DNA of 32,000 nucleotides from Mycolicibacterium smegmatis. GTDB lineage: Bacteria; Actinomycetota; Actinomycetes; Mycobacteriales; Mycobacteriaceae. Both the position numbers and the translations under genes were made by a program. The stretch's first letter is position 1; every line of letters starts with the position of its first letter. The stretch spans positions 6,180,001-6,212,000 of the forward strand of contig NZ_LN831039.1 in NCBI RefSeq assembly GCF_001457595.1. Reading direction: 5' to 3'. Shown here piece after piece: positions 1-32,000 of the stretch. The notes beneath the pieces are model-generated. The model worked only from the letters and a program-made list of their open reading frames with translations. It did no database searches and was not told the origin of the DNA.

Positions 1-331
1 CGCGCGCGGCCTGCAGCGCGGTGTAGCGCGCCGTGCGCGCGGCGGCCTCAGGCCCGCCGGAGCGGCCCACCACCACCGGGATGATCTCGGCGCCAACACA
101 TCCCACCGACAGCGCCTGCGCCCGAGCGGTCTCGGCCACCGCACGCGCCCCGGTCTGCAGGCCGTGGTCGACGATGAGCGCCGTGGTGGGACGCTCGGCC
201 GCCGCGACCGCGGTGAGCGCAAGCGAGTCCGGCCCGCCGGACAACGCCACACACCAACGCTCGCCGTCGACCTGCGCTGCGAAATCGGCCACCGCCCGAC
301 GCAGCGTCGCTACAGCACGCGATCGATCCAT
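1..331 (-). CDS. tilS: tRNA(Ile)-lysidine synthetase, N-terminal part (gene runs off the left edge)
   Basis: Not in the ORF track. Reverse-strand translation from ATG 331-329 reads MDRSRAVATLRRAVADFAAQVDGERWCVALSGGPDSLALTAVAAAERPTT... The PP-loop SGGxDS motif is present. The ORF overlaps the stop of the upstream gene by 22 nt. Its position next to the Rv3626c-like, dacB and ppa genes matches the mycobacterial order. Confidence 0.85.
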   Translation of the reverse strand, partial: MDRSRAVATLRRAVADFAAQVDGERWCVALSGGPDSLALTAVAAAERPTTALIVDHGLQTGARAVAETARAQALSVGCVGAEIIPVVVGRSGGPEAAARTARYTALQAAR

Positions 332-1383
332 CGCTGCGGTTCGTCGATCTCGGTTGGCAGCGGCAACGTCTCGGCGTTCGTCCACACGGTGTTGAACCGT
401 TGCATCCCCACCGCGGACACCACGTGGTCGACGAACGCCTTGCCGCGGGTGTACTGACTGAGCTTGGCGTCGAACCCCAGAAGTGCACGCACGACGCGCT
501 GCACCGGGGGCTGCTTGCGTTGCCTGCGTTCGTCGAAGCGCCGCCGGATGGTGCCCACGGTGGGCACCACGGCGGGGCCGACGGCGTCCATGACGTGATC
601 GGCGTGGCCTTCCAGCAGCGTGCCCAGCACGAGCAGCTGGTCGAGCGCGCGGCGCTGTGGTTCGGCTTGCACCGCACGCATCAGCCCCAGGATCCCGGTC
701 GAATTCGGTTCGGGCGCAGACCCGTTGGTGCCGCGCTGGTCACGCACATACTGCGCGAGGCGGCCGGCCAGTGCGGCGACATCGTCGCCCGCGTCCTGCG
801 TGAGCACCGCGAGCGCCTGCGACATGTGGTCGGCCAGCCAGGGGTTGGCACGGAACTGCACGCGGTGGGTGACCTCGTGCAGGCACACCCAGAGGCGGAA
901 ATCGGCTGGGGCGACGCGCAGTTGGCGTTCCACCGAGATGACGTTGGGGTACACCAGCAGCAGTTCACCGCCGTCGGGGCCGAACGGGTCGTACTGGCCC
1001 AGGATGCCCGACGAGATGAACGCCAGCAAAGCGCCGGTCTGCGCGCCGGTGACGCGCCCGGTGATGAACCCGGGCTTGTCCCCGTTCGCGTCACTGTCCC
1101 CGGTGTCGCCGCCCGTGGTCATCACGCGCATCGACCGGGTGGCCGCGCGGATCCAGGCGGGACGGTCGACGACACGGGCCTCGGGCACCTCGGCGCCCTC
1201 GTTGAGACCCGTGACCTCGCGGACGGGCAGCTCGGCGGCGCGTGCGCTCTCGGAGAGCTGATCGATGGCCTGGCGGCGCGTGTAGTCGGTCGAAGGCGGT
1301 TCGGGCCGCGCGAGCTTGGCGCCGACGGATGCGGCGAAATCCCAGTCGACCGCGCGGCCCGCGGTCATGGTGGGCCGGCTCAT
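310..1383 (-). CDS. zinc-dependent metalloprotease (Rv3626c-like conserved actinobacterial protein)
   Basis: HExxH motif in LHEVTHRVQF. The track ORF (310..1557) is trimmed to ATG 1383-1381, which forms an ATGA overlap with the dacB stop (1380-1382) and gives 357 aa. ATG 1392 is an alternative start. Confidence 0.8.
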   Translation of the reverse strand: MSRPTMTAGRAVDWDFAASVGAKLARPEPPSTDYTRRQAIDQLSESARAAELPVREVTGLNEGAEVPEARVVDRPAWIRAATRSMRVMTTGGDTGDSDANGDKPGFITGRVTGAQTGALLAFISSGILGQYDPFGPDGGELLLVYPNVISVERQLRVAPADFRLWVCLHEVTHRVQFRANPWLADHMSQALAVLTQDAGDDVAALAGRLAQYVRDQRGTNGSAPEPNSTGILGLMRAVQAEPQRRALDQLLVLGTLLEGHADHVMDAVGPAVVPTVGTIRRRFDERRQRKQPPVQRVVRALLGFDAKLSQYTRGKAFVDHVVSAVGMQRFNTVWTNAETLPLPTEIDEPQRWIDRVL

Positions 1384-2822
1384 GCGCCGCATCCGCAGCT
1401 GCGCAGCACCGCGGCGAGCCCGTCGATCGCGGTGCGTCCGGTGGGCCCGGCTTTGTTGGAGATCAGCGCGAACGTGAGCACCCGGCCGCTGTGGTCGGTG
1501 ACGATGCCTGCCAGCGCGTTGGTTCCGGTCAGCGACCCGGTCTTGGCGCGCAGCCACCCCGCTGCGGCACGGCCGGCGTCGGTGTCGAGGTAGCGGTTGG
1601 ACAGGGTGCCGCTGCCACCGGCGATGGGCAGCAGGTCCACCAGCGGCCGCAGAGCGGGCTGGGTGTGTCCGGCAGCGGCGTTGACCACCTCATCGAGGGT
1701 AAGCGCGGTCAGCCGGTTGTCGACCGACAGGCCGCTGGAGTCGACGAGCTTGGCACCCGAGGTGTCGATGCCCACGGATCGCAGCTGGGTCAGCACCGCC
1801 CCGACGGCACCCTCGAAGCTCTGTGGCCGGCCAAGCGCCTCGGCGACCTCACGGGCGATCGACTCGGCCATCACGTTGTCCGACTCGTTCATCATCTGCC
1901 GCAGCCGCTCGATGAGCGGCGCCGACTGCACCTCGGCGATTGTGGTGCCGCCACGCATGCCGGACGGCATCAGCGTCACCGACTCCGGTTCGACGCCCAG
2001 TGCAGCGGCCAGCGCCTTCCCCGCGTCGAGCGCGGGACTCTTCGACCGCCGCGATTCCACGGTGGTGGGCTGTGTGCGCCCGCCGTCGAGCATCACCGAT
2101 TCCATGGGGGCGATGTCGCCGCCGTCGATGTCGGCCGGGTCCCAGCCGGGTGCCATGGTGGGGCCGCTGTACGCGCTGGTGTCGACGCGCACACGGGTCA
2201 CGCGAATGCCGCGTGCGCGGACCTGGTCGGCGAGGTCGCTGATGCGGGCCGCACCCTTGTACCAGGTGTCGGTGCCCTTCGGCGCGGCCGAGAGTGTGGT
2301 GTCGCCGCCGCCGCGCAGCACCACCAGGCCGGGTTGGTCGTCGGCGGCGACCACCGTGGTGGTGAGCCGCGCATCGCGGTCGAGGGTCAGCAGCGCGGCC
2401 GCGGTGGTGAGCACCTTGTTGACCGACGCGGGCTGCATGGGCACGCGCGCACCCTGTTCCCACAGCTCGGCGCCCGTGTCGGCGTCGGTGATGCGGCCTG
2501 TGATCAGACCCAGATCGGGGTTTGCCAGCGCGGCCGCAAGGGCGGTCGCCAGCCCGCGGCGCGTCGGTGTGGGCGCCGACAGGTCGACCGGTACGACGCC
2601 GGGATCGGCGGTGGCAGGCGGCGGGGCGGGCGGCACGGCCTCTGCCGCGTCCGAGTGTTTGCCGGTGAACAGGGCCGCGGCGGCGACGACGGCGACGACG
2701 AGCGCGAGCACCGCAACACCTACCGCCACGTGGGTGGACCGTCTCCACCGAGTGGGCCGCATACTTCCCCTGCTCTCGATCGACCTTGGTGAGCCACCCC
2801 TGCGCGTCAGCCTATCGCTCAT
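1380..2822 (-). CDS. dacB: D-alanyl-D-alanine carboxypeptidase/endopeptidase, PBP4 (S13) family
   Basis: Penicillin-binding motifs SxxK (ASVNK), SxN (ESDNV) and KTG (AKTGSL). The N-terminal membrane anchor is [21 protein letters not shown]. The start is either 2822 or the internal ATG at 2762. Confidence 0.85.
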
Positions 2823-2905
2823 CTAAGGTTGGCCCGGCGGGGTCGTCCCCGCGTCGTCTGACAAGACGATCCCAGTCTGATTGCACATGCGAAGGAGCCG
2901 CGACG

Positions 2906-3394
2906 GTGGAGTTCGACGTCGTCATCGAGATCCCGAAGGGTTCACGCAACAAGTACGAGGTGGATCACGAGACCGGCCGGGTCAAGCTGGACCGGTACCT
3001 GTACACCCCGATGGGTTATCCCACCGACTACGGCTTCTTCGAGAACACCCTGGGCGAGGACGGCGATCCGCTGGACGCGCTGGTGCTGCTGACCGAGTCG
3101 GTGTTCCCCGGTTGCGTTGTCGAGGCGCGCCCGGTCGCGATGTTCAAGATGACCGACGAGGCGGGCGGCGACGACAAGCTGCTGTGCGTGCCTGCCGGTG
3201 ACCCCCGCTGGGACCACATCCAGGACGTCGGCGACATCTCGCAGTTCGAACTCGGCGCCATCAAGCACTTCTTCGTGCACTACAAGGACCTCGAGCCCGG
3301 CAAGTTCGTCAAGACCGCCGACTGGGTGGGCCGCGCCGAGGCCGAGGCCGAACTGCAGCGCTCGGTCGAGCGGTTCAAGAGCTCCGGGCACTGA
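2906..3394 (+). CDS. ppa: inorganic pyrophosphatase (family I)
   Basis: [62 protein letters not shown] is near-identical to the mycobacterial Ppa as I remember it. The GTG start at 2906 is preceded by the SD GAAGGAG (2891-2897). It encodes 162 aa. The upstream extension in the track (from 2786) is rejected. Confidence 0.95.
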
Positions 3395-15874: not shown

Positions 15875-16234
15875 ATGACGAGCCAGGACCCGGCGAACTG
15901 CACGGTGGAGGAACGCCGCCTAGGAGACATCACTGTGGTGGCGGTCACCGGAACGGTGGACATGCTGACCGCACCGAAGCTCGAAGACGCGATCGGTTCC
16001 GCTGCCAAGAGCGAGCCGTCGGCCGTGGTGGTCGATCTGAGCGCGGTGGATTTCCTTGCCTCCGCGGGCATGGGCGTGCTGGTGGCAGCACACGGCGAAC
16101 TCGCGCCGGCGGTGCGCCTGGTGGTCGTGGCGGACGGCCCGGCGACGAGCAGACCGCTCAAACTTGTCGGAATCGCCGACGTGGTCGACCTGTTCGCCAC
16201 GCTCGACGAAGCCCTCTCGTCGTTGAAGACATAA
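15875..16234 (+). CDS. anti-sigma-factor antagonist (STAS domain; RsfB/SpoIIAA/RsbV-like)
   Basis: The STAS signature VVVDLSAVDFLASAGMGVLV has a Ser at the SpoIIAA-Ser58-equivalent position (FLASAG). The ATG at 15875 is preceded by the SD GGAGGTG. 119 aa. The extension from 15761 in the track is rejected. Confidence 0.8.
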   Translation: MTSQDPANCTVEERRLGDITVVAVTGTVDMLTAPKLEDAIGSAAKSEPSAVVVDLSAVDFLASAGMGVLVAAHGELAPAVRLVVVADGPATSRPLKLVGIADVVDLFATLDEALSSLKT

Positions 16235-16267
16235 AACTGTGCGCAACCGGGTAGCCACCAGGTCGAT

Positions 16268-16714
16268 ATGACAGACGCAGGCGAGTCAACCAGTTTCATC
16301 AAGGCGGGCGTAGTTGCCGCCCCGGAACGCGCCGCCCAGTTGCGGCGCGAATTCTCGGAATGGCTCGGCACGCATTTCACGCTCGACCCGGTGAAGGCCA
16401 GTGACATCGTCCTGGCCGTCAACGAGGCGCTGGCCAACGCGGCGGAGTTTGCCTACACCAACGCCACAGAACCCGGTCTGATGCACGTGCGCGCCGATTA
16501 CGACACCGGGGCCGAGACCCTCACGGTCGTCGTCGCCGACGAGGGCACATGGCGGATAGGCGACACCGATCACAAGAATCCGGCACGGGGGCGCGGCATC
16601 CCGTTGATGCACGCGCTCACCGACCGTGCCGTCATCGACGCGACGCCCACCGGCACCAAGGTGCGCCTGCAGTGGGAGAACATCGCCCGCAGCGTCACCT
16701 CAGAACTGCGGTAA
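16268..16714 (+). CDS. anti-sigma regulatory factor / serine-protein kinase (RsbW/SpoIIAB-like, HATPase_c_2 type)
   Basis: N-box-like NEALANAAEFAY, VVADEGTW and GRGIPLMHAL. 148 aa. It lies immediately downstream of the STAS gene (33-nt gap). Confidence 0.7.
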   Translation: MTDAGESTSFIKAGVVAAPERAAQLRREFSEWLGTHFTLDPVKASDIVLAVNEALANAAEFAYTNATEPGLMHVRADYDTGAETLTVVVADEGTWRIGDTDHKNPARGRGIPLMHALTDRAVIDATPTGTKVRLQWENIARSVTSELR

Positions 16715-17146
16715 CCGCACCACCTGGACGAAGAACTCGTCGATCTGTCGCACCGCGCTCATGAACTGGTCCAGGTCAACCGGTTTGGTGACATAGGCGT
16801 TCGCGTGCAGCTTGTAGCTGCGCAGGATGTCTTCCTCGGCCGATGAGGTCGTCAGCACCACGATCGGGATGTGGCACAGGTTCTCGTCGGACTTGATCTT
16901 CTCCAGCAGTTGCCTGCCGTCGTACTTGGGCAGGTTGAGGTCGAGCAAGATCAGGTCCGGGCGGGGTGCATCCGCGTAGGGTCCCCGCCGGTACAAGAAG
17001 TCCAGCCCCTCTTCGCCGTCGTGCGCGACGTGCAGATTGTTCTTGATCTTGTTGTGCTCGAAAGCTTCCCGCGTGATGAGCTCGTCGCCCGGATCGTCCT
17101 CCACCAGGAGGATGTCGATCGCGCGGGTTTCGTCGGCTGACGTCAT
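16700..17146 (-). CDS. single-domain response regulator (CheY/Rcp1-like receiver)
   Basis: ILLVEDDPGDELI..., the acceptor region PDLILLDLNLPKYDG, then IPIVVLTTS and AYVTKP. ATG 17146-17144 forms an ATGA overlap with the kinase stop. The track ORF to 17521 is over-extended. Confidence 0.85.
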   Translation of the reverse strand: MTSADETRAIDILLVEDDPGDELITREAFEHNKIKNNLHVAHDGEEGLDFLYRRGPYADAPRPDLILLDLNLPKYDGRQLLEKIKSDENLCHIPIVVLTTSSAEEDILRSYKLHANAYVTKPVDLDQFMSAVRQIDEFFVQVVRLPQF

Positions 17147-18720
17147 GTGTTGTTTCCTTCCAGCTGGGCGTCGGTGAGGACGCCCGGCTTGTTTGTGGGC
17201 ATGACAGGCAAGGTGAAACAGAACCGGGTTCCGCCCGTGTAAGACGTGTCGATCCAGATGTTGCCGCCGTGGTGCTCGATGATCTTCTTGCACAGGGCAA
17301 GTCCGATACCGGTGCCGCTGTAGCTGTCGCGGCCGTGGAGCCGCTGGAAGATCACGAACACCTTGTCGACGAATTCCTCGGAGATGCCGATGCCGTTGTC
17401 GGACACCGTGAACAGCCAGCTGTCCACGCCGCCGCCGGTCTGGGCGTGGCACTCGATGACGATACGGGGCGCCACCCCGTCGCGGCGGAACTTCACCGCG
17501 TTGCCGAGGAGGTTCTGCCACACCATGATCAACAGCGTGGGGTCACCGTCGATGTGCGGCAGCGGTTCTTGCGGCCGGATGATCTCGGCGCCCGATTCCT
17601 CGACCGCGGTGGAGATGTTGTTCAGCGCGGCGTCGACCACCGCGTTGAGATCGACCTCGGTGGTCGTCGAATAGAGCCGGCCCACGCGTGAGAACGTGAG
17701 CAGGTCGTTGATCAGCACCTGCATGCGTTTGGCGCCGTCGACGGCGAAACCGATGTACTCGACGCCGCGCTCGTCGAGTTTGTCGCCATAACGCCGTTCG
17801 AGCAGCTGACAGAACGAGGCGACCTTGCGCAGCGGCTCCTGCAGATCATGTGAGGCCACGTAGGCGAACTGCTCGAGTTCGGCGTTGGACCGGCGCAGTT
17901 CCTCGGCCTGCTCGTCGAGCGCCAGGCGCGCCTGCTTGGACGCGTCGAGTTCATCCACGATGCGCTGGCGCATGTCCTCGACGTCGATGGCGATCGCGCG
18001 AATGTCCTTGGGACCCTTCGGTTCGATGCGCTCGGTGAAGTTGCCCTCGGTGATCCTGCGGCACGACGCGGCAAGTGCGGCCAGCGGACGGTTGACGGCG
18101 TTGCGCACCAGCACCGCCAGCACCACCGCCATTGCGAAGAACGCCACGATCATCGCGATCAGCACGCTGTTGCGCCACGTACGCATGCGTTCCATGTCCT
18201 CGATGCCGACGTTGCGCGCCTCGCTGAGATGGCGGTTCTGGACGTCGAAAAGTCCACGCAGCTGGTCGAACTGCGCTTTACCGCGCTCGGCGACCATGTC
18301 GTTGCCGATGTGCGGGCGTCCGGGCTGAATACTCGCGATCATCGGATCTGCGTAGGCGGCACGCCAAGCCGCAGCAGCCTTTTCGATCACGGCGAGATCG
18401 GCGAGGAGTTGGTCGCGGCCGTCGAGATCGTCGCGGATGCTCGCCGCGGCATCGGCCTCGGCCTGCTGCCCTTCGTCATACGGGGCCAGGAACTGGGGGT
18501 CGGCCGCGATTGCGTAACCGCGCACCGCCGTCTCCTGGTCGCGCAGCGCGGCCTGCAGTTGATAGGCCGCGACACGGGCCGGCTGGATCTCGTTGATCAG
18601 CTCATCGGAGAGGGTGTCGGTGCGGCCGACGAGCACGGCACCGGCGATCGCACCCGTGAAGACCACAACTCCCATGACCGACAGAACCAGGTTCTGCCAG
18701 CCTTGTACCGTCAATCTCAT
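17143..18720 (-). CDS. sensor histidine kinase, CHASE3-HAMP-HisKA-HATPase architecture
   Basis: Two TM helices flank a CHASE3-like segment (ETAVRGYAIAADPQFLAPYDEG). A HAMP segment follows (RPLAALAASCRRITEGNFTERI). The H-box is ASHDLQEPLRKV, and the ATPase region contains LGNAVKF, DNGIGI and GTGIGLALCKKI. Confidence 0.9.
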   Translation of the reverse strand: MRLTVQGWQNLVLSVMGVVVFTGAIAGAVLVGRTDTLSDELINEIQPARVAAYQLQAALRDQETAVRGYAIAADPQFLAPYDEGQQAEADAAASIRDDLDGRDQLLADLAVIEKAAAAWRAAYADPMIASIQPGRPHIGNDMVAERGKAQFDQLRGLFDVQNRHLSEARNVGIEDMERMRTWRNSVLIAMIVAFFAMAVVLAVLVRNAVNRPLAALAASCRRITEGNFTERIEPKGPKDIRAIAIDVEDMRQRIVDELDASKQARLALDEQAEELRRSNAELEQFAYVASHDLQEPLRKVASFCQLLERRYGDKLDERGVEYIGFAVDGAKRMQVLINDLLTFSRVGRLYSTTTEVDLNAVVDAALNNISTAVEESGAEIIRPQEPLPHIDGDPTLLIMVWQNLLGNAVKFRRDGVAPRIVIECHAQTGGGVDSWLFTVSDNGIGISEEFVDKVFVIFQRLHGRDSYSGTGIGLALCKKIIEHHGGNIWIDTSYTGGTRFCFTLPVMPTNKPGVLTDAQLEGNNT

Positions 18721-19925
18721 CTGCGCGAGCGCTCCACACGTATCACGGCGATGTCATCGGAGAGGCCGCCGTGCGTCTGCGCACGTGACTCGGCCTCGTT
18801 GATCAGCGAGGTGACGAAGTCCCGCCCGGGCGTCGCGGCGAGCGCGCGGGCGACGGCGAGCAGGCCGCTCTCCCCCAGCCGCTCGTCACCACGTCCGGCG
18901 TGGCCCTCGAACAGTCCGTCGGTCAACAGCAGCAACCCGTGGCCCTCCGGTAGCTCGTAGTGGTTCACGGGCCACTCCCTGGCGCCCAGCCCCAGCGCGG
19001 CGCCGGGCCGCGGCTCGAGCCAGTCGACGGTGCCGTTGCCGTGCACCAGCAGGCCGGGGTGACCCGCACGCACCACCGTGAAGCGTCCGCTGTCGGGTTC
19101 CAGTGCCACGCTGCACAGCGTGGCGAAGATGCCCTTGCCGGGACGCTCGGTGGTCAGGATCCGGTCGAGCTGGCGCATGCGTTCGTTACCGCGCAGCCCT
19201 GCGAAGGTCAGCGCGCGCCACCCGATTCGCAGGGCAACGCCGAGCGCGGCCTCATCAGGTCCGTGACCTGCGACGTCACCGATCATCACGTGGACGGTGC
19301 GGTCGGGCGTCTGCACGACGTCGTAGAAGTCGCCGCCGATCAGGGCGTGCTGGCGGCTGGGCCGCGCCTCGACGACGATGTCGACGCCCGAACCCTCCAT
19401 GAGCAGCGGGGACGGCAGGAGCCCGCGCTCCAGGCGCGCGTTCTCCTGAGCCCTCAGCTGGCTGGCGTGCAGGTCGACCGAGGTGAGCTCGGCGCGTTTG
19501 CGTTCGATGGCGTAGAGGACCGCGCGGCGCAGCATCTCCGGTTCGACACGGCCTTTGACCAGGTAGTCCTGCGCACCCGAGGCCACCGCGGAAACGCCGA
19601 AGTGCTCGTCGTTGAGGCCTGTGAGCACGATGATCGGGATCCGCGCGTCCAGCTTGCCGAGGTGATGAAGCGCGTCGATCCCTGCCGCATCGGGAAGATT
19701 GAGGTCGAGCAGGACACAGTCGGGGCGGTGGTCGGCCAGCGTCCGCTCGGCGTCGGACATCGATTTCGCCCACACGAAGTCGATGTCGGGAGCATCGGCG
19801 ATCAGTTCTTCGACCAGGATGGCATCGGCACGGTCGTCTTCGACCAGCAGCAGGGAGAGGCGCCGCTGGCCCGGACCAGTTAGGTCAACGGGCGACGCAA
19901 TGACTCGGTCAAATGGCGCGCGCAT
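18717..19925 (-). CDS. response-regulator receiver fused to PP2C (SpoIIE/RsbU-type) serine phosphatase
   Basis: The REC domain (LLLVEDDRADAILV, PDCVLLDLNLPD, IPIIVLTG, DYLVKG) is followed by PP2C motifs GGDFYDV, IGDVAGHG, LLTDGLFE and DDIAVIRV. The stop forms an ATGA overlap with the kinase start (18717-18720). It is trimmed to ATG 19925, giving 402 aa. Confidence 0.85.
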   Translation of the reverse strand: MRAPFDRVIASPVDLTGPGQRRLSLLLVEDDRADAILVEELIADAPDIDFVWAKSMSDAERTLADHRPDCVLLDLNLPDAAGIDALHHLGKLDARIPIIVLTGLNDEHFGVSAVASGAQDYLVKGRVEPEMLRRAVLYAIERKRAELTSVDLHASQLRAQENARLERGLLPSPLLMEGSGVDIVVEARPSRQHALIGGDFYDVVQTPDRTVHVMIGDVAGHGPDEAALGVALRIGWRALTFAGLRGNERMRQLDRILTTERPGKGIFATLCSVALEPDSGRFTVVRAGHPGLLVHGNGTVDWLEPRPGAALGLGAREWPVNHYELPEGHGLLLLTDGLFEGHAGRGDERLGESGLLAVARALAATPGRDFVTSLINEAESRAQTHGGLSDDIAVIRVERSRR

Positions 19926-20104
19926 GGGAAAAACACGTCCTTCACAACGATGGCCACCCTGGTCGCGCTGACCCTCTGCTTTAGTGACAACACTCCTGAC
20001 AATACCCAGTGAACGCGTATTACCGACAATTCGCGGAGAACACCGCATGTAACGTTCTGACTTCTGGCAGTCCGACGTGTGGACTGCAAACGCGCTTGCG
20101 GCGC

Positions 20105-20134
20105 AGGCAGAAATTGCTGACACGGCCCTGTCAG
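20105..20134 (-). terminator. candidate intrinsic terminator after the KGSADH-kdgD-glucD2 operon
   Basis: On the minus-strand RNA there is a perfect 6-bp stem, CUGACA-GGGCCG-UGUCAG (20134-20117). It is followed by CAAUUUCU, 22 nt downstream of the stop at 20156. The U-tract is short. Confidence 0.4.
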
Positions 20135-24638: not shown

Positions 24639-25607
24639 CTACTGGGCATCACGCACGCGGGTCTTGTACAGGCTCGCGGCCGTGGTGATCAGCAGCGTCA
24701 CGACGATCACGCCCAGGCTGGCCAGCGTCGGGATCTCGGGCACGTGTACAGGCTCACCGCCGTTGATGAACGGCAGCTCGTTCTCGTGCAACGCGTGCAG
24801 GATCAGCTTCACGCCGATGAACGCCAGGATGAACGCCAGCCCCTGCGACAGGTACACGAGCCGCTTGAGCAGGTCGCCCAGCAGGAAGTACAGCTGCCGC
24901 AGACCCATCAGCGCGAACACGTTGGCCGTGAACACCAGGTACGGCTCCTGCGTCAGGCCGTAGATCGCGGGAATCGAGTCAAGCGCGAACAACAGGTCGG
25001 TGGTGCCCAGGGCCACGATGACCAGGAACATCGGCGTGATCAGCCGTTTGCCGTTCTCCCGCACCCACAGGCGCAGCCCGTCCCATTTGTCGGTGGTGCG
25101 CAGGTGTTTGCGTGCGAAGCGCACCACCGCGTTGTCGCCGTCGTCGTCATGGTCGGTGTCACGGACCAGGTTGACCGCGGTGTACACCAGGAACGCGCCG
25201 AAGATGTAGAACACCCACGAGAACTGGTTGATGGCCACCGCGCCAAGCGCGATGAAGATGCCGCGGAAGATCAGCGCCAGGATGATGCCTACCAGCAGGG
25301 CCTGCTGCTGGTAGATCCTCGGCACCTTGAAGCTGGCCATGATGATCAAGAAGATGAACAGGTTGTCGACCGACAGGCTGTACTCGGTGAGCCATCCGGC
25401 GAAGAACTCGACGCCGTACCGGTGGCCGTGGAACAACCACGTCCACACTCCGAAGGCGATCGCGAGCCCGATGTAGATCGACAGGTACGTCGCCGTCTCG
25501 CGTCGCGTGGGTTCGTGTGGACGACGCCCGATGATCACCACGTCGAACAGCAGTACGGCGATCGTCACCGACAGGGTGATGATCCACTCGAGCTGGGTTA
25601 CGTGCAT
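24639..25607 (-). CDS. TerC-family integral membrane protein
   Basis: The signature TerC blocks are EYSLSVDNLFIFLIIM and ALGTTDLLFALDSIPAIYGLT. About 9 TM segments. The ATG at 25607 is preceded by the SD GGAGG. Confidence 0.9.
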   Translation of the reverse strand: MHVTQLEWIITLSVTIAVLLFDVVIIGRRPHEPTRRETATYLSIYIGLAIAFGVWTWLFHGHRYGVEFFAGWLTEYSLSVDNLFIFLIIMASFKVPRIYQQQALLVGIILALIFRGIFIALGAVAINQFSWVFYIFGAFLVYTAVNLVRDTDHDDDGDNAVVRFARKHLRTTDKWDGLRLWVRENGKRLITPMFLVIVALGTTDLLFALDSIPAIYGLTQEPYLVFTANVFALMGLRQLYFLLGDLLKRLVYLSQGLAFILAFIGVKLILHALHENELPFINGGEPVHVPEIPTLASLGVIVVTLLITTAASLYKTRVRDAQ

Positions 25608-25740: not shown

Positions 25741-25823
25741 GACAAGTGTGCCTGATCGTGACCGTGATCCGAAATCGAACAGCCACGCCGCGTCGTCTCC
25801 GGCCCGCCCGGGCACGGGCTTAG

Positions 25824-25829
25824 TAGTTT
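25824..25829 (+). promoter_or_regulatory. possible -10 element (TAGTTT, TANNNT class) for a leaderless transcript starting at the GTG of the Pls-like gene
   Basis: TAGTTT ends 6 nt before GTG 25836. There is no purine-rich SD in the 20 nt upstream of the start codon. Confidence 0.3.
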
Positions 25830-25835
25830 GTATCC

Positions 25836-28800
25836 GTGACAGCAACGGACGACGCAGTTGGTGGGCACGCGGTCCCCGCTCAGTACCTGCTCTCATCGCT
25901 GGCACCTGCACCGCGGACGCTCATCGACATCCTCTACGACACCGCGCGGCGGTTCCCCGACGCACCCGCGATCGACGACGGCACGGTGCAGCTCACCTAT
26001 GCCGAACTCGTCGCCGACATCGAGGAGAGCGTCGCGTGGCTGGCCGCACGCGGCATCGGCCGCGGCGACCGGATCGGCATCCGGATGCCGTCGGGAAGTT
26101 ACGCGCTGTACGTCGCGATCCTGTCGGTGCTGGCGGCCGGGGCCGCCTATGTGCCTGTGGACGCCGACGATCCCGACGAGCGCGCCCAGTTGGTGTTCGG
26201 TGAGGCCGGCGTCGTCGGCGTGATCACCGAGCGCGGCCTGATCCGCGGCGTCGGCCAGTCGCGCGGCTGGCGCGCGGCGGCCCCGCTCGGCCGCGACGAC
26301 GCCTGGATCATCTTCACGTCGGGCTCTACCGGCACTCCCAAGGGAGTCGCCGTGACGCATCGCAGTGCCGCCGCGTTCGTCGACGCGGAAGCACGAATGT
26401 TTCTGCAGGACAACCCGATCGGACCGGGTGACCGGGTGCTCGCGGGCCTGTCGGTCGCGTTCGACGCATCGTGCGAGGAGATGTGGCTGGCCTGGCGCAA
26501 CGGTGCGTGCCTGGTGCCTGCGCCGCGGTCGCTGGTGCGCAGCGGGATGGACCTCGGCCCCTGGCTGGTGAGCCGCGACATCACCGTGGTGTCCACGGTT
26601 CCGACGCTGGCGGCGCTGTGGCCCGCCGAGGCGCTCGAATCGGTGCGGCTGCTGATCTTCGGCGGCGAGGCCTGCCCGCCCGAATTGGCGCAGCGGCTCG
26701 CGGTCGACGGCCGCGAGGTGTGGAACACCTACGGGCCCACCGAGGCCACCGTGGTGGCCTGCGCGGCGCGCCTCGACGGCCTTGGCCCGGTCAGCATCGG
26801 GCTGCCGTTGAGCGGCTGGGATCTGGCCGTGGTGGACCGTGACGGGCTCCCGGTGGCGGTCGGCGAGGTCGGTGAGCTGGTCATCGGCGGCGTCGGGCTG
26901 GCCCGTTACCTGGACCCGGACAAGGACCGCGAGAAGTACGCGCCGATGCCGACGCTGGGCTGGAGCCGCGCGTACCGCAGCGGGGATCTGGTGCGACTGC
27001 AGGACGACGGCCTGTACTTCCAGGGCCGCGCCGACGATCAGGTGAAGGTCGGCGGCCGCCGCATCGAGCTCGGCGAGGTCGACACCGCGCTGGTCAACCT
27101 TCCCGGCGTCAGCGCGGGGGCGGCGGCGGTCCGCAAGACCGCGAGCGGCACGCCGCTGCTGGTCGGCTACGTCGCGAGCCACGACCCGTCGTTCGACCTC
27201 GCGGCCGCGCGCGCCGCGCTGGCCGAATCGCTGCCTGCCGCGCTGGTACCGCGTCTGATCCTGCTCGACGAACTGCCGACCCGTACCTCCGGCAAGGTCG
27301 ACCGCAACGCCCTGCCCTGGCCGCCACCCGACGGTACCGATCAGGACGCCCCCGAACTCGTCGGCACCATGGGCTGGCTGGCCGGCCTGTGGCGCGACGT
27401 GCTCGGCACGACCGTCGACGGGCCCGAGGCCGATTTCATCGCGCTCGGCGGCGGGTCACTGTCGGCCGCGCAGCTCGTCGCCGCGATGCGCAGGCGCTAC
27501 CCGCAGGTGACTGTTGCCGACATCTACGACCATCCCCGGCTCGGTTCGCTGGCCGGATATCTCGACGAGCTGTCCCCGCCCCCGGAGATCACCGCGCGCG
27601 AGGTCGCCCCGACGTCGCGGCTCACGCAGGCCGCTCAGGTCGCGCTTTCGGTGCCGCTGGCCACGCTGACCGGCATGCAGTGGGTGGTGTGGCTGGGCCT
27701 GTTGAACAACGTCGCCGCCGCGCTGGACCTCGTGCCGTGGGCGCAGCCGGTCAACTGGTGGCTGCTGCTCGCCGGCTTCGGAGTGTTCATCACGCCCGTG
27801 GGCCGCATGGGTATCGCGGTGCTGTTCGCCCGGATGCTGTTGAGCGGCCTGCAACCCGGGACCTACCGCCGCGGCGGCGCGGTGCACCTGCGGGTCTGGT
27901 TCGCCGAGCGGCTCGCCGAGGCCAGCGGCGCCGAGAACCTCGCGGGCGCACCGTGGATGGTGTACTACGCCCGCGCGCTCGGCAACAGCGTCGGCAAGGG
28001 CGTCGACCTGCACTCGGCACCGCCGGTGACCGGCATGGCCAAGCTGGGGCACCGCTGCTCGATCGAACCCGAGGTGGATCTCAGCGGGCACTGGATCGAC
28101 GGGGACCTGTTCCACGTCGGCCCCATCACGGTCGGCAACGACGCCACGATCGGCGCCCGCACCACGCTGCTGCCCGGCGCCACGGTCGGCAAGAACGCCG
28201 ATGTGGCACCGGGGTCCGCGGTGGTCGGCAAGGTCAAGAACGGCCAGTACTGGAAGGGCTCGCCCGCCGTGAAGTCGGGCAAGGCGCGCCACCCGTGGCC
28301 CGATCACCGGCCGCCGCGCGCCCCCGTGTGGGTCGCGGTGTACGGCGTGACCTCCATCCTGCTGGGCAGCCTGCCGCTGGCGGGCCTGGCCGCGGGTCTC
28401 GCCGTGATCGGCTGGGGCATCCGTGACACCGCCACCCCGGTCGACGCGATCCTGCCCGCGCTGGCGTGGACGCCCGTGGCGACGGTGGTCGCGGTGCTCA
28501 CCTACGCCGTGTTGACCGTGCTGGGCGTGCGCGTGCTCTCGGTGGGGCTCAGCGAGGGCTACCACCCGGTGCGCAGCCGCGTGGGCTGGCAGTTGTGGGC
28601 CACCGAACGCCTCATGGACGCCGCGCGCAACTACCTGTTCCCCGTCTACGCGAGCCTGCTGACCCCGTGGTGGCTGCGTCTGCTGGGCGCGAAAGTCGGT
28701 GAGGGCACCGAAATCTCGACGGCGCTGTTCACCCCGAAGTTCACCGAGGTACAGGACGGCGCGTTCCTGGCCGACGACACCATGGTCGCGTCGTACGAAC

Positions 28801-29771
28801 TGGGCGGCGGCTGGATCCACGTCGCCAAGGCCACCATCGGCAAGCGCGCGTTCCTCGGCAACTCGGGCATCACGCAACCCGGGCGCAAGGTGCCCGACGA
28901 CGGTCTGGTGGCCGTGCTGTCGGCCACGCCGCACAAGGCCAAGGCCGGCTCGTCGTGGCTGGGCAGCCCTCCGGTGCGGTTGCGGCGCAAGGCGACCGCC
29001 GCCGACGTGCTGCGCACCTTCCACCCGTCGCCGCGGCTGAAAGCCATGCGCGCGGCGGTCGAGACGTGCCGGATCATCCCGGTGATCATCACGTTCGGCA
29101 TCGGGGTGGCGGTGCTGGGTGCACTGCAGACGCTGGTGCTGCGGTTCGGTTACCTGTGGGCCGCGCTCGCGAGCGGACTGGTGCTGCTGGCCGCGGGTGC
29201 CCTGGCCGGGCTCATCGCGGTGGCCGCGAAGTGGTCGGTGATCGGGCGGATCCGCGCCGTCGAGCATCCGTTGTGGTCGTCGTTCGTGTGGCGCAACGAG
29301 GTCTCGGACACGTTCGTCGAGACCGTCGCGGCGCCGTGGTTCGCGCGGGCCGCGACCGGCACCCCGGTGATGAACCTGTGGCTGCGCGCACTCGGCGCGT
29401 CGATCGGACGCGGGGTGTGGTGTGAGACCTACTGGCTGCCCGAGGCCGACCTGGTGAGCCTCGGCGCGGGGGCCACCGTCAACCGCGGGTGTGTGGTGCA
29501 GACGCACCTGTTCCACGACCGCATCATGCGGATGGACAGCGTTGTCCTGGAAGCGGGTTCGACGCTGGGACCGCACTGCGTGGCGCTGCCTGCCGCCCGA
29601 TTGGGCGCCGGCGCCACGGTGGGACCCGGATCGCTCGTGATGCGTGGCGACGAGGTTCCGTCGTCGACGCGGTGGCAGGGCAATCCGATCGCGCCGTGGG
29701 ACATGTTCGGCAAGAAACGCACCGCCGCCGCGTCGGCGCGCAAGAAGACGACAGAGAAACCGGCCGCGTGA
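25836..29771 (+). CDS. Pls-type (epsilon-poly-L-lysine-synthetase-like) single-module membrane NRPS: A - T - (2 TM + soluble domain) x3
   Basis: 1311 aa. Adenylation cores: IIFTSGSTGTPKGV, FDAS, NTYGPTEATV, YRSGDL, GRADDQVKVGGRRIELGEV, SGKVDR. The carrier motif is LGGGS (Ser541, nt 27456-27458). Three hydrophobic helix pairs then alternate with three mutually similar hexapeptide-rich soluble segments. No HHxxxDG condensation motif and no recognisable thioesterase domain. GTG start. Confidence 0.9.
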   Translation: MTATDDAVGGHAVPAQYLLSSLAPAPRTLIDILYDTARRFPDAPAIDDGTVQLTYAELVADIEESVAWLAARGIGRGDRIGIRMPSGSYALYVAILSVLAAGAAYVPVDADDPDERAQLVFGEAGVVGVITERGLIRGVGQSRGWRAAAPLGRDDAWIIFTSGSTGTPKGVAVTHRSAAAFVDAEARMFLQDNPIGPGDRVLAGLSVAFDASCEEMWLAWRNGACLVPAPRSLVRSGMDLGPWLVSRDITVVSTVPTLAALWPAEALESVRLLIFGGEACPPELAQRLAVDGREVWNTYGPTEATVVACAARLDGLGPVSIGLPLSGWDLAVVDRDGLPVAVGEVGELVIGGVGLARYLDPDKDREKYAPMPTLGWSRAYRSGDLVRLQDDGLYFQGRADDQVKVGGRRIELGEVDTALVNLPGVSAGAAAVRKTASGTPLLVGYVASHDPSFDLAAARAALAESLPAALVPRLILLDELPTRTSGKVDRNALPWPPPDGTDQDAPELVGTMGWLAGLWRDVLGTTVDGPEADFIALGGGSLSAAQLVAAMRRRYPQVTVADIYDHPRLGSLAGYLDELSPPPEITAREVAPTSRLTQAAQVALSVPLATLTGMQWVVWLGLLNNVAAALDLVPWAQPVNWWLLLAGFGVFITPVGRMGIAVLFARMLLSGLQPGTYRRGGAVHLRVWFAERLAEASGAENLAGAPWMVYYARALGNSVGKGVDLHSAPPVTGMAKLGHRCSIEPEVDLSGHWIDGDLFHVGPITVGNDATIGARTTLLPGATVGKNADVAPGSAVVGKVKNGQYWKGSPAVKSGKARHPWPDHRPPRAPVWVAVYGVTSILLGSLPLAGLAAGLAVIGWGIRDTATPVDAILPALAWTPVATVVAVLTYAVLTVLGVRVLSVGLSEGYHPVRSRVGWQLWATERLMDAARNYLFPVYASLLTPWWLRLLGAKVGEGTEISTALFTPKFTEVQDGAFLADDTMVASYELGGGWIHVAKATIGKRAFLGNSGITQPGRKVPDDGLVAVLSATPHKAKAGSSWLGSPPVRLRRKATAADVLRTFHPSPRLKAMRAAVETCRIIPVIITFGIGVAVLGALQTLVLRFGYLWAALASGLVLLAAGALAGLIAVAAKWSVIGRIRAVEHPLWSSFVWRNEVSDTFVETVAAPWFARAATGTPVMNLWLRALGASIGRGVWCETYWLPEADLVSLGAGATVNRGCVVQTHLFHDRIMRMDSVVLEAGSTLGPHCVALPAARLGAGATVGPGSLVMRGDEVPSSTRWQGNPIAPWDMFGKKRTAAASARKKTTEKPAA

Positions 29772-31105
29772 CGAGGTCCAAGAAGGTCGCCAAGAAAGCC
29801 GGGCACCCGCCTGTCATCGACCCGTACCTGCCCGGAAACGGCAACTTCGGCTACCGGGTGTCGCGCTACGAACTCGACCTCGAATACAAGGTTGCGAGCA
29901 ACCGTCTGACCGGGACCGCGACCATCACCGCGGTGACGCTTGCGGCGCTGCGAACGTTCACCCTCGACCTGTCGGACAACCTCTCGGTGGGCAAGGTCTC
30001 GGTGAACGGCCGCAGGCCCGCACAGTTCCGCTGCTCCGGGGCGAAACTGCACATCACGCTGCCCTCGGCGCTGCCCGCTGGCTCCGCGATGACCATCGTC
30101 GTCCGCTACAGCGGCAATCCGCGGCCCATCGACACCCTGTGGGGTGACGTCGGTTTCGAGGAACTCACCAACGGGGCGCTCGTCGCGGGCCAGCCCAACG
30201 GCGCGGCGTCGTGGTTCCCGTGCGACGACCATCCCAGCGCCAAGGCCTCCTACCGTATCCAGATCAGCACCGACAGCCCGTACCACGCGATCGCCAACGG
30301 GGAACTGTTGTCGCGCAAGGTGCGTGCGGGCCACACCGTGTGGACCTACGAACTCGCCGAGCCCACCTCGCCGTATCTGGTGACGCTGCAGATCGGCATG
30401 TACGAATCGCACCGGATGACCAAGACCCCGGTACCGATGCACGCCGTGCTGCCGCCGCGCCTGCGATCGGCGTTCGACCACGACTTCGAGCGTCAACCGC
30501 AGATGATGAAGCTTTTCGTCAAACTCTTCGGCCCGTATCCGCTGAGCACCGGCTACACCGTGGTGGTCACCGACGACGACCTCGAGATACCGCTTGAGGC
30601 CCAGGGCATCTCGATCTTCGGCGCCAACCACTGTGACGGCAGCCGCGGGTCCGAGCGTCTCATCGCCCACGAGTTGGCCCACCAGTGGTTCGGCAACTCG
30701 GTGACGGCGCGGCGCTGGCGCGACATCTGGCTGCACGAGGGATTCGCGTGCTACGCCGAGTGGTTGTGGTCGGAGAACAGCGGCGGGCGCAGCGCGGCCG
30801 AGTGGGCACAGCACTACTACGACAAGTTGCGGCACTCCCCGCAGGACCTGCTGCTGGCCGATCCCGGCCCGCGCGACATGTTCGACGACCGCGTGTACAA
30901 GCGCGGAGCCATGACCCTGCATGTGCTGCGCGAGCGGATCGGCGACAAGGACTTCTTTGCGCTACTGCAGGATTGGACCACACGCCACCGGCACAGCACG
31001 GCGTTCACCGACGATTTCACGGGCCTGGCCGCCGGTTACACCAGTGAATCGCTGCAGCCGCTGTGGCAGGCGTGGCTGTACTCGGAAGCGCTGCCGCCGC
31101 TGTGA
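29768..31105 (+). CDS. M1-family zinc metallopeptidase (short, ~445 aa, no signal peptide)
   Basis: The gluzincin signature is HELAH (30668-30682) -X18- E (WLHEGFACY). Also present are FPCDDHP (the FPCFDEP-like block) and the catalytic-Tyr block VYKRGAM. GTG 29768-29770 forms a GTGA overlap with the synthetase stop. The track ORF from 29489 is over-extended. Confidence 0.85.
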   Translation: MTRSKKVAKKAGHPPVIDPYLPGNGNFGYRVSRYELDLEYKVASNRLTGTATITAVTLAALRTFTLDLSDNLSVGKVSVNGRRPAQFRCSGAKLHITLPSALPAGSAMTIVVRYSGNPRPIDTLWGDVGFEELTNGALVAGQPNGAASWFPCDDHPSAKASYRIQISTDSPYHAIANGELLSRKVRAGHTVWTYELAEPTSPYLVTLQIGMYESHRMTKTPVPMHAVLPPRLRSAFDHDFERQPQMMKLFVKLFGPYPLSTGYTVVVTDDDLEIPLEAQGISIFGANHCDGSRGSERLIAHELAHQWFGNSVTARRWRDIWLHEGFACYAEWLWSENSGGRSAAEWAQHYYDKLRHSPQDLLLADPGPRDMFDDRVYKRGAMTLHVLRERIGDKDFFALLQDWTTRHRHSTAFTDDFTGLAAGYTSESLQPLWQAWLYSEALPPL

Positions 31106-32000
31106 CCGACGGCGGTGCGCCTGCCCCATTCGATCCGGACGATCCGGCGCGTGGCGCGATCACCCGCAGCAGCATCGCCCGCGTCGGGTCGGCGACCGCC
31201 ATCACGGCACTGTGCGGCTACGCCGTGCTGTACCTCGCCGCGCGTGACCTCGAACCCGCGGGATTCTCGGTGTTCGCGGTGTTCTGGGGCGCCTTCGGAC
31301 TTGTCACCGGCGCGGCCAACGGCCTGCTGCAGGAGGCCACGCGTGAGGTCCGGTCGGTCCAGGTCGCGCCCCGGGTGTCCGGGGTTTCGGGGCCGCGCAC
31401 ACATCCGATGCGGGTGGCGGCCGCGGTCGGGGTGGTCGCGGCGCTGGTCATCGCGGGCACCTCGCCGCTGTGGAGCGGGCACGTGTTCGTGGAGTCGCGC
31501 GCCCTTTCCGTCGCCCTGCTCAGCGTCGGTCTGGCCGGGTTCTGCCTGCACGCGACATTGTTGGGCATGCTCGCCGGTATCGACCGCTGGACCGAATACG
31601 GCGCGTTGATGGTCACCGACGCGGGCATCCGTGTGGGGGTGGCCGCCGCGTCGTTCGTCTTAGGTTGGGGTCTGGGCGGTTATCTGTGGGCCACCGTCGC
31701 GGGGGCGGGCGCGTGGCTGATCCTGTTGCTCACCGCACCCGCCGCGCGTGTGGCCGCCCGCCAGGTCACCGCGGGCGGCACGTGGACGTTCGTCCGCGGG
31801 ACCGCACACTCGATCGCCGCGGCCGGGGCCAGCGCGATCCTGGTGATGGGATTCCCGGTGCTGCTCAAGGCCACGTCCGCCGATCTCGGTGCGGCAGGCG
31901 GTGTGGTGATCCTGGCCGTCACGCTCACGCGGGCCCCGCTGCTGGTGCCGCTCACCGCGATGCAGGGCAACCTGATCGCCCATTTCGTCGACCAGGCCCG
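31102..32000 (+). CDS. multi-pass membrane protein, MOP/Wzx (polysaccharide-biosynthesis/flippase)-like, 5' part (runs off the right edge)
   Basis: Not in the ORF track. From GTG 31102 (GTGA overlap with the peptidase stop) an uninterrupted frame reads VTDGGAPAPFDPDDPARGAITRSSIARVGSATAITALCGYAVLYLAARDLEPAGFSVFAVFWGAFGLVTGAANGLLQEATREV...AILVMGFPVLLKATS...LTRAPLLVPLTAMQGNLIAHFVDQA. It has strong GC3 bias and at least 6 hydrophobic helices. Confidence 0.55.
   Translation, partial: MTDGGAPAPFDPDDPARGAITRSSIARVGSATAITALCGYAVLYLAARDLEPAGFSVFAVFWGAFGLVTGAANGLLQEATREVRSVQVAPRVSGVSGPRTHPMRVAAAVGVVAALVIAGTSPLWSGHVFVESRALSVALLSVGLAGFCLHATLLGMLAGIDRWTEYGALMVTDAGIRVGVAAASFVLGWGLGGYLWATVAGAGAWLILLLTAPAARVAARQVTAGGTWTFVRGTAHSIAAAGASAILVMGFPVLLKATSADLGAAGGVVILAVTLTRAPLLVPLTAMQGNLIAHFVDQA

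Follow-up and report, generated by a model that had tools for sequence, protein, structure and literature searches.

A predicted epsilon-poly-L-lysine synthetase gene coupled to a PldII-type M1 peptidase gene in Mycolicibacterium smegmatis

Introduction

The pls gene of Mycolicibacterium smegmatis, which encodes a synthetase of the Pls/PosA family, lies on the plus strand at 25836-29771 of the 32,000-nucleotide stretch of contig NZ_LN831039.1 analysed here (the window; fraction of guanine plus cytosine about 0.64-0.73) and is followed by genes for an M1 peptidase (ORF2, the second open reading frame) and a membrane protein (ORF3). The locus raises the question of what the synthetase makes in a mycobacterium and what part the two following genes play. 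The results reported here indicate that the locus quite probably encodes the epsilon-poly-L-lysine (hereafter epsilon-PL) synthetase of M. smegmatis together with a coupled M1 peptidase of the PldII type, the polymer and its degradation being assigned by orthology. The architecture of the synthetase, its family membership, its lysine code and the coupling and conservation of the operon are direct observations.

Domain organization of the synthetase

The original prediction described the 1311-residue product of pls, which begins at a GTG codon, as an adenylation (A) domain and a carrier domain followed by three repeats of a transmembrane (TM) pair and a soluble domain, with neither a condensation nor a thioesterase domain. 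Pfam, hydropathy and AlphaFold agree with this order. Four Pfam families matched the protein, namely AMP-binding (residues 35-357), PP-binding (residues 514-576), Hexapep (residues 764-796) and Hexapep_2; no condensation or thioesterase family was among them, as had been predicted. The profile-model comparison proposed with the prediction placed the C-terminal region in NCBIfam TIGR02353, "Pls/PosA family non-ribosomal peptide synthetase", with 735.5 bits against a curated cutoff of 423.1, the match covering residues 600-1285 of the protein and positions 2-695 of the 695-position profile. The protein, with its single adenylation-thiolation module, also scored 325.8 bits, against a cutoff of 317.4, with TIGR01733, and it is 100% identical to NCBI entries of M. 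smegmatis named 'Pls/PosA family non-ribosomal peptide synthetase'.

The closest solved structure for the A domain (residues 14-499; 25875-27332, plus strand) is 7WEW, the A domain of Streptomyces albulus Pls, matched with 632 bits across 486 residues. The carrier, or thiolation (T), domain (residues 514-576; 27375-27563, plus strand; Pfam PP-binding E = 2.7e-12) contains the phosphopantetheine-attachment serine, Ser541, in an LGGGS motif of which G538, G539 and S541 are invariant in an alignment of 24 sequences (alignment A2). Each of the sequence-level features tested as defining a Pls-type synthetase was found, and the protein is a Pls-type enzyme as first proposed.

Predicted amino acid substrate

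The ten Stachelhaus positions were located via conserved motifs and gave the code DAESIGTVVK for the M. smegmatis A domain, which is the code of the experimentally confirmed S. albulus Pls (PMC10522769, Suppl. Table 2). Mutagenesis in the work on PosA revealed that position 2 of the code sets the length of the substrate, Ala specifying lysine, Met ornithine and Phe DAB/DAP (PMC10522769). M. smegmatis Pls has both residues that mark the lysine code, the Ala of position 2 and the Glu of position 3, and L-lysine is the predicted substrate of the A domain. The same lysine-type code was found in most of 23 diverse representatives of the family, and a few carried either the ornithine-type DMEHNGT[VI]SK or a code of the DFE... 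type, in which position 2 is Phe. PosA of Acinetobacter baumannii, the delta-poly-L-ornithine synthetase (PMC10522769), shares family and overall architecture with M. smegmatis Pls, whereas its code is DMEHNGTVSK, with the Met of ornithine activation at position 2, and its gene forms a single-gene unit with no peptidase neighbour. The supplementary table cited above also lists a protein of 'Mycobacterium tuberculosis', PLV54557.1, with the Pls lysine code; this may be either a true M. tuberculosis gene or the product of a contaminated or mislabelled assembly.

Membrane-bound C-terminal region

Hydropathy and AlphaFold divide the C-terminal region into three units, all encoded on the plus strand. 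Unit 1 (27618-28283) consists of TM1 (residues 595-629), TM2 (residues 641-668) and the beta-helix domain C1 (residues ~675-816), within which Pfam Hexapep matched residues 764-796 with E = 1.1e-10. Unit 2 (28326-28982) consists of TM3 (residues 831-861), TM4 (residues 868-902) and beta-helix C2 (residues ~908-1049), and unit 3 (29073-29696) of TM5 (residues 1080-1104), TM6 (residues 1106-1135) and beta-helix C3 (residues ~1143-1287). The hydropathy profile has a hydrophobic pair ahead of each of the three soluble stretches, and the soluble domains resemble one another by BLASTP (C1 versus C2, E = 3.6e-11; C1 versus C3, E = 3.5e-12). C3 carries a near-invariant QTHLFxDR motif, of which T1223, H1224, L1225, D1228 and R1229 are invariant in the 24 sequences of alignment A2; H1224 (H645 in C-terminal numbering) is invariant also in a 67-sequence alignment (A4).

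A confident AlphaFold model of residues 580-1311, for which 67 sequences representing the family were aligned, reached a predicted local distance difference test score (pLDDT) of 93.8 and a predicted template-modelling score (pTM) of 0.92. In the model three repeats follow one another, each with a pair of long helices, a linker that is also helical and a beta-helix; the helix pairs are at residues 595-668, 831-902 and 1080-1135. The top 50 matches listed by Foldseek against the PDB were all hexapeptide-repeat acetyltransferases or designed proteins of that fold, 48 of them with E <= 0.001. Among them were GlmU, QdtC and the acetyltransferases of maltose, galactoside and serine (E from 5e-5 to 1e-3). 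No PDB chain spanned the whole C-terminal region in this search, and a sequence search of the PDB matched nothing past residue ~588. The results are consistent with the description of Pls domains C1-C3 as acetyltransferase-like in the study on Corynebacterium variabile (PMC8117764). Since a TM pair flanks each soluble domain, C1-C3 are all predicted to lie on the same, cytoplasmic, side of the membrane as the A and T domains.

Coupled M1 peptidase

ORF2 (29768-31105, plus strand) encodes a PldII-like, two-domain M1 zinc metallopeptidase of 445 residues that matched Pfam Peptidase_M1_N and Peptidase_M1 with 94.8 and 49.7 bits. The protein was aligned with those of 76 related loci and of a Streptomyces-like genome (L084), 78 sequences altogether. 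The zinc site, HELAH (residues 301-305)-X18-E324 (30668-30739, plus strand), and the catalytic Tyr377 are conserved in all 78; the two Pfam domains and the HEXXH-X18-E pattern bear out the original assignment to the M1 zinc peptidases. In place of the exopeptidase motif GXMEN, ORF2 has P-L-E-A-Q (residues 275-279; 30590-30604, plus strand), and the corresponding P-[LV]-E-A-Q, with the Glu alone retained, is found in every aligned sequence. The replacement is a variant that does not exclude ORF2 from family M1, and it might have to do with how an isopeptide backbone is recognised or with cleavage of the endo type. The best PDB match, 6A8Z/6IFF, a 474-residue 'zinc metalloprotease' (E = 1e-40), aligns end to end with ORF2, and both are without the C-terminal domain of classical aminopeptidase N. 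ORF2 differs from 6A8Z/6IFF and from the M1 exopeptidases in having P-L-E-A-Q for GXMEN and in a gene context that dedicates it to Pls. A secreted or membrane-anchored enzyme was considered and rejected: no signal peptide or TM segment was found in any of the 78 aligned sequences, and hydropathy revealed no hydrophobic segment in ORF2.

In S. albulus, pldII is translationally coupled to pls and its product degrades epsilon-PL (PMC9223678), and the study on C. variabile places pls in an operon with a homologous peptidase gene (PMC8117764). The M1 protein encoded downstream of pls in the Streptomyces-like genome, in the same pls-M1 order, is 51% identical to ORF2. By synteny, by comparison with this Streptomyces-like locus and by the published statements, ORF2 is the putative counterpart of PldII, which would make the locus the canonical pls-pldII pair known from Streptomyces and Corynebacterium (PMC9223678, PMC8117764). 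Of the original reading of this gene, the peptidase family stands, and the counterpart relationship to pldII had been missed. The pls gene of the Streptomyces-like genome itself (L084:9001-12876; genome size 9.9 Mb, with a chaplin gene near) is split into open reading frames of 707 and 563 residues that lie ~60 nucleotides apart. It is a pseudogene with a frameshift or else an artefact of assembly, and the M1 gene that follows it is intact.

Gene coupling and conservation

The stop codon of pls and the start codon of the M1 gene overlap in the sequence GTGA at 29768-29771, and the M1 stop and the ORF3 start overlap in a second GTGA at 31102-31105, both read off the plus strand. The conservation of this arrangement was examined by a synteny scan of one genome per species, the counts referring to the best 80 loci listed. 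An M1 gene lies directly downstream of pls in 78 of the 80, from Mycolicibacterium to Kribbella. At the pls/M1 junctions of these 78 loci a four-nucleotide NTGA overlap occurs in 47 and a one-nucleotide overlap in 13 (60/78 overlapping). At the M1/ORF3 junction, GTGA was seen again in four further genomes that were examined (L004, L020, L028 and L067). Neither of the two overlaps in M. smegmatis is due to chance. ORF3 (31102-32000, plus strand) is cut by the end of the window after the first 299 of its 426 residues; the full gene (L001:15267-16547) is followed by a convergent TetR gene, so that the unit comprises three genes. The genes pls, M1 and ORF3 look like one translationally coupled unit. 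The original prediction had placed both overlaps at these positions and had read the three genes as one unit, and the sequence and the conserved junctions support it on both points.

The pls-M1 pair was found in, among other genera, Mycolicibacterium, Mycobacteroides, Mycolicibacter, M. asiaticum, Rhodococcus, Nocardia, Tsukamurella, Williamsia, some Gordonia, Kribbella, Kibdelosporangium and Humibacillus. Pls orthologues are 84-94% identical throughout the genus Mycolicibacterium, and the C-terminal region is 64-70% identical to that of Nocardia and Rhodococcus. Pls homologues were reported in 2014 to be conserved in all Nocardia strains examined (PMC4035055), and antiSMASH NAPAA/epsilon-PL clusters with 100% similarity have been reported in Rhodococcus (PMC10819586). 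These orthologues, of the Nocardia nfa3790 type (PMC4035055) and the Rhodococcus NAPAA type (PMC10819586), have the same M1 neighbour as M. smegmatis pls, whereas they are without ORF3 and are known from genome mining only.

In the C. variabile study, pls of that organism, which belongs to the same bacterial order and has a pls-peptidase operon and a predicted lysine substrate, yielded epsilon-PL 26-35 residues long on expression in S. coelicolor, while the native strain was silent; mycobacteria lie outside that study, and the text mentions no third gene (PMC8117764). These findings bear on an alternative in which lysine is activated but the product consists of short oligomers, or of lysyl or oligolysyl groups placed on an envelope acceptor such as a lipid or cell-wall polymer, with ORF3 moving the product and the M1 protein trimming it. 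The degree of identity within Mycolicibacterium and to Nocardia and Rhodococcus is unusual for a secondary-metabolite gene, and a role in housekeeping or in the envelope would fit the presence of pls in every Nocardia strain studied (PMC4035055). The alternative further agrees with the lack of detectable epsilon-PL in native C. variabile, with the coupled polytopic membrane protein of some lineages and with the label 'O-antigen/teichoic acid export protein' that some pipelines give to ORF3 homologues. However, expression of the C. variabile orthologue yielded epsilon-PL of the ordinary kind with 26-35 residues, the M. smegmatis protein has the code and entire architecture of confirmed Pls enzymes, the locus has no linked gene related to an acceptor, and most pls-M1 lineages are without ORF3, which is therefore not essential to the core function. 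An oligomeric or acceptor-bound product is considered improbable, and a synthetase of free epsilon-PL is the preferred assignment.

A few loci depart from the common arrangement. In two Gordonia loci (L058 and L073) no M1 gene was found within 8 kb of pls. In four others (L055, L065, L056 and L046; Tsukamurella, one Gordonia metagenome-assembled genome (MAG) and Williamsia) additional genes occupy 0.4-2.1 kb between pls and M1, including small opposite-strand DoxX-like membrane proteins and a small GNAT-like open reading frame. A contig labelled 'MAG: Bifidobacterium breve' (L025, CAMCWJ010000011.1) carries a mycobacterial-type pls-M1-ORF3 operon with 78, 76 and 71% identity and is almost certainly a mis-binned mycobacterial contig.

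Third gene of the operon

Hydropathy and AlphaFold predict ~12 helices in ORF3, a polytopic membrane protein that the original prediction described as MOP-like or flippase-like. Neither the M. smegmatis protein nor any of 39 homologues matched a Pfam or NCBIfam family at E <= 10, a PDB profile search with ORF3 gave none, and for three divergent orthologues the sole trace in Pfam and NCBIfam was PF01943 (Polysacc_synt) with E = 0.31 in the Williamsia protein. Alignment by hhalign with E. coli RfbX, WzxC, WzxE and MurJ yielded probabilities of at most 1.1%, the same as for the MFS, APC, Wzy and Wzz controls. The AlphaFold model of ORF3, obtained from a shallow alignment, had a pLDDT of 46; with this poor model MOP proteins ranked first in Foldseek at non-significant values (E >= 0.27, TM-score ~0.25). 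Homologues are labelled "O-antigen/teichoic acid export protein", "lipopolysaccharide biosynthesis protein" or "MATE family" by JGI and in some NCBI entries, and in most entries they are named hypothetical. ORF3 resembles the MOP flippases (Wzx, MurJ and MATE) in size, in the number of predicted helices, the MOP fold having 12-14 TM helices in two pseudo-symmetric lobes, and in some of these labels; it differs in that no MOP profile matches it and that comparison of its N-terminal and C-terminal halves detected no similarity indicative of an internal repeat. The MOP-like assignment was not supported by these searches, and it is possible but unproven.

Among the 80 loci, ORF3 follows M1 directly in 24, of the Mycolicibacterium type and of Mycobacteroides, Williamsia and Speluncibacter, and it was not at pls-M1 in Rhodococcus, Nocardia, Tsukamurella, M. 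asiaticum or Mycolicibacter. In seven inspected loci without ORF3 no same-strand gene is coupled to M1, and in five of these a convergent gene is directly next. The identity of ORF3 to the M. smegmatis protein is 61% in Mycobacteroides franklinii, 50% in Williamsia and 51% in Speluncibacter. By this distribution ORF3 is an accessory to a two-gene pls-M1 core.

The distribution also bears on whether ORF3 has any functional link to its neighbours. The functional unit could be the pls-M1 pair only, with ORF3 a co-transcribed, lineage-specific neighbour of unrelated membrane function. In favour of this view, ORF3 is next to the pair in only 24 of the 80 loci, and in Rhodococcus, Nocardia, Tsukamurella, M. 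asiaticum and Mycolicibacter the operon ends at M1, with convergent genes next; in Mycobacteroides ORF3 has diverged faster than its neighbours (61% identity versus 78% for pls and 74% for M1); and Streptomyces secretes epsilon-PL with no ORF3. Against it, ORF3 where present always lies directly after M1, the GTGA overlap with M1 is usually retained there (in Mycolicibacterium, Mycobacteroides and Speluncibacter), and ORF3 stays beside the pair down to the 50% identity of Williamsia, which is hard to explain with no functional link. An unrelated third gene is thus judged unlikely, though with an appreciable chance of being correct.

Start region and expression of pls

The 13-nucleotide sequence TTAGTAGTTTGTA (25820-25832, plus strand) ends three nucleotides ahead of the GTG start of pls. 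It occurs once in the window, where 0.01 matches are expected by chance. An exact copy is present at the same offset before the pls GTG in five other Mycolicibacterium species, and versions with one to three mismatches in several more, the rest of the intergenic region being variable. No Shine-Dalgarno sequence was found ahead of the GTG at 25836; Nocardia, Rhodococcus and Williamsia have purine-rich Shine-Dalgarno-like sequences before pls instead. The -10 pattern of mycobacteria is TANNNT, and the motif contains a fitting TAGTTT at 25824-25829 (-12 to -7 from the GTG). Because of this position and fit, a leaderless pls transcript is a reasonable inference, with a predicted promoter role for the motif. 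The motif may be either the -10 element of the leaderless transcript or an operator.

On the other side of the start region lies a gene for a TerC-family membrane protein (24639-25607, minus strand), divergent from pls. Rfam detected no RNA element in the whole window, and between pls and the TerC gene a relaxed scan produced nothing but an HgcC match below threshold; the TerC leader yielded no riboswitch, of the yybP-ykoY class or any other, at either the gathering or the relaxed threshold. Scans for E. coli-type promoters and terminators in the start region and inside the operon gave nothing useful, the consensus being ill-suited to mycobacteria.

The copy of the synthetase in strain mc2 155 (ABK71819.1/AFP42411.1) is 99% identical. 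Its gene is probably MSMEG_6137, as judged from a gene count starting at ppa, which we take to be MSMEG_6114, and from the matching annotation. A "nonribosomal peptide synthetase" tagged MSMEG_6137 was detected in the ClpC1 interactome (PMC10433963), and this detection suggests, as a hint, that the protein is expressed. The finding is pertinent to the view that the locus is cryptic in M. smegmatis, that is, intact yet unexpressed in nature and of no physiological consequence. Pls was absent among the 1,647 proteins detected in native C. variabile, and no mycobacterial polycation is reported in the literature searched, as a cryptic locus would have it. In contrast, the catalytic motifs are all intact, dozens of species show strong purifying selection, both the start region and the junctions are conserved, and a proteomic interactome includes the probable mc2 155 protein (PMC10433963). 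A cryptic locus is on this evidence very improbable.

Other genes in the window

A partner-switching/two-component cluster occupies 15875-20123 of the window and encodes a STAS protein, an anti-sigma-type HATPase_c_2 kinase, a response regulator, a CHASE3-HAMP histidine kinase and a fusion of a response regulator with a SpoIIE/PP2C phosphatase. The region 310-3394 encodes a Zincin_2 peptidase, an Rv3627c-like D-Ala-D-Ala carboxypeptidase and an inorganic pyrophosphatase. This trio is syntenic with Rv3627c-Rv3628 of M. tuberculosis, which suggests that the next ~28 kb, including pls, is absent from that position in M. tuberculosis.

Discussion

The preferred assignment, an epsilon-PL synthetase with a PldII-type peptidase, would entail the following pathway. 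Judging from the Pls-identical code, L-lysine would be adenylated by the A domain and then loaded as a thioester onto Ser541 of the carrier domain. The six TM helices would hold three tandem cytoplasmic left-handed beta-helix (LbH), acyltransferase-like domains, which would pass the lysyl group repeatedly to the epsilon-amine of free lysine or of the free growing chain, and a cationic isopeptide polymer would be released with no thioesterase, a mechanism borrowed from work on S. albulus Pls. The coupled M1 zinc peptidase, as counterpart of PldII, would hydrolyse the polymer for self-protection or turnover. ORF3, present in some Mycobacteriales only, would most plausibly serve as an export or immunity accessory, a speculative step. 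The polymer itself, its epsilon linkage and length, the substrate of the peptidase and the role of ORF3 are what we infer in this scheme.

Several points weigh against this interpretation. A literature search for a mycobacterial Pls, poly-lysine or NAPAA product or gene study found none, in keeping with the statement in the original prediction that no product of the family had been characterised in mycobacteria. Native C. variabile showed neither Pls expression nor epsilon-PL, so native production in this order is unproven. Neither the type of linkage nor the chain length is legible in the sequence. No signal peptide or TM segment is present in the M1 protein, yet PldII is said to be located outside the membrane (PMC9223678), a conflict that makes the place where polymer and peptidase would meet problematic. 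The putative identification with PldII comes from synteny, the Streptomyces-like locus and published statements. The probable identity of the mc2 155 gene as MSMEG_6137 derives from gene counting and matching annotation. Finally, an export or immunity role of ORF3 is a speculation.

The closest characterised system is that of S. albulus Pls-PldII, which has in common with the M. smegmatis locus the order A-T-(TM pair + LbH domain) x3, membership in TIGR02353, the code DAESIGTVVK and an overlapping downstream gene for an M1-type peptidase. The M. smegmatis locus differs in belonging to a mycolic-acid host, in its third coupled gene for a membrane protein and in an apparently leaderless start with a genus-specific motif; the C-terminal region is only ~50-55% identical to the nearest representatives at the distance of S. 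albulus. The enzyme family is already annotated and has been described in sister genera, and the locus presents no new biosynthetic principle. The novelty originally proposed holds for a product, unreported in mycobacteria, and not for the type of enzyme, which had been named by NCBI, described in Nocardia in 2014 (PMC4035055) and recognised by antiSMASH in Rhodococcus (PMC10819586).

A more far-reaching view is that in Mycolicibacterium and a few related genera ORF3, as a member of an undescribed family of membrane proteins, was recruited to pls-M1 and that the trio places or exports a lysine polycation at the envelope, with a physiological role rather than that of a secreted antibiotic. This view is doubtful at present. 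If true, ORF3 would represent a new kind of exporter for polycations or of immunity protein, and the envelope polycation would have a role in, for example, surface charge, biofilm formation, or phage or antibiotic tolerance.

The practical value of the locus lies in a known class of enzyme that is open to experiment and in one family of membrane proteins, ORF3, to characterise. Across Mycobacteriales the pair of pls and peptidase genes shows the conservation of a core gene, although no native production has been observed in the order. As the standard genetic model of the mycobacteria, M. smegmatis is a convenient organism in which to ask what purpose epsilon-PL-type synthetases serve, and a polycation formed at the membrane could influence the charge of the envelope, biofilms, competition, and drug and phage susceptibility.

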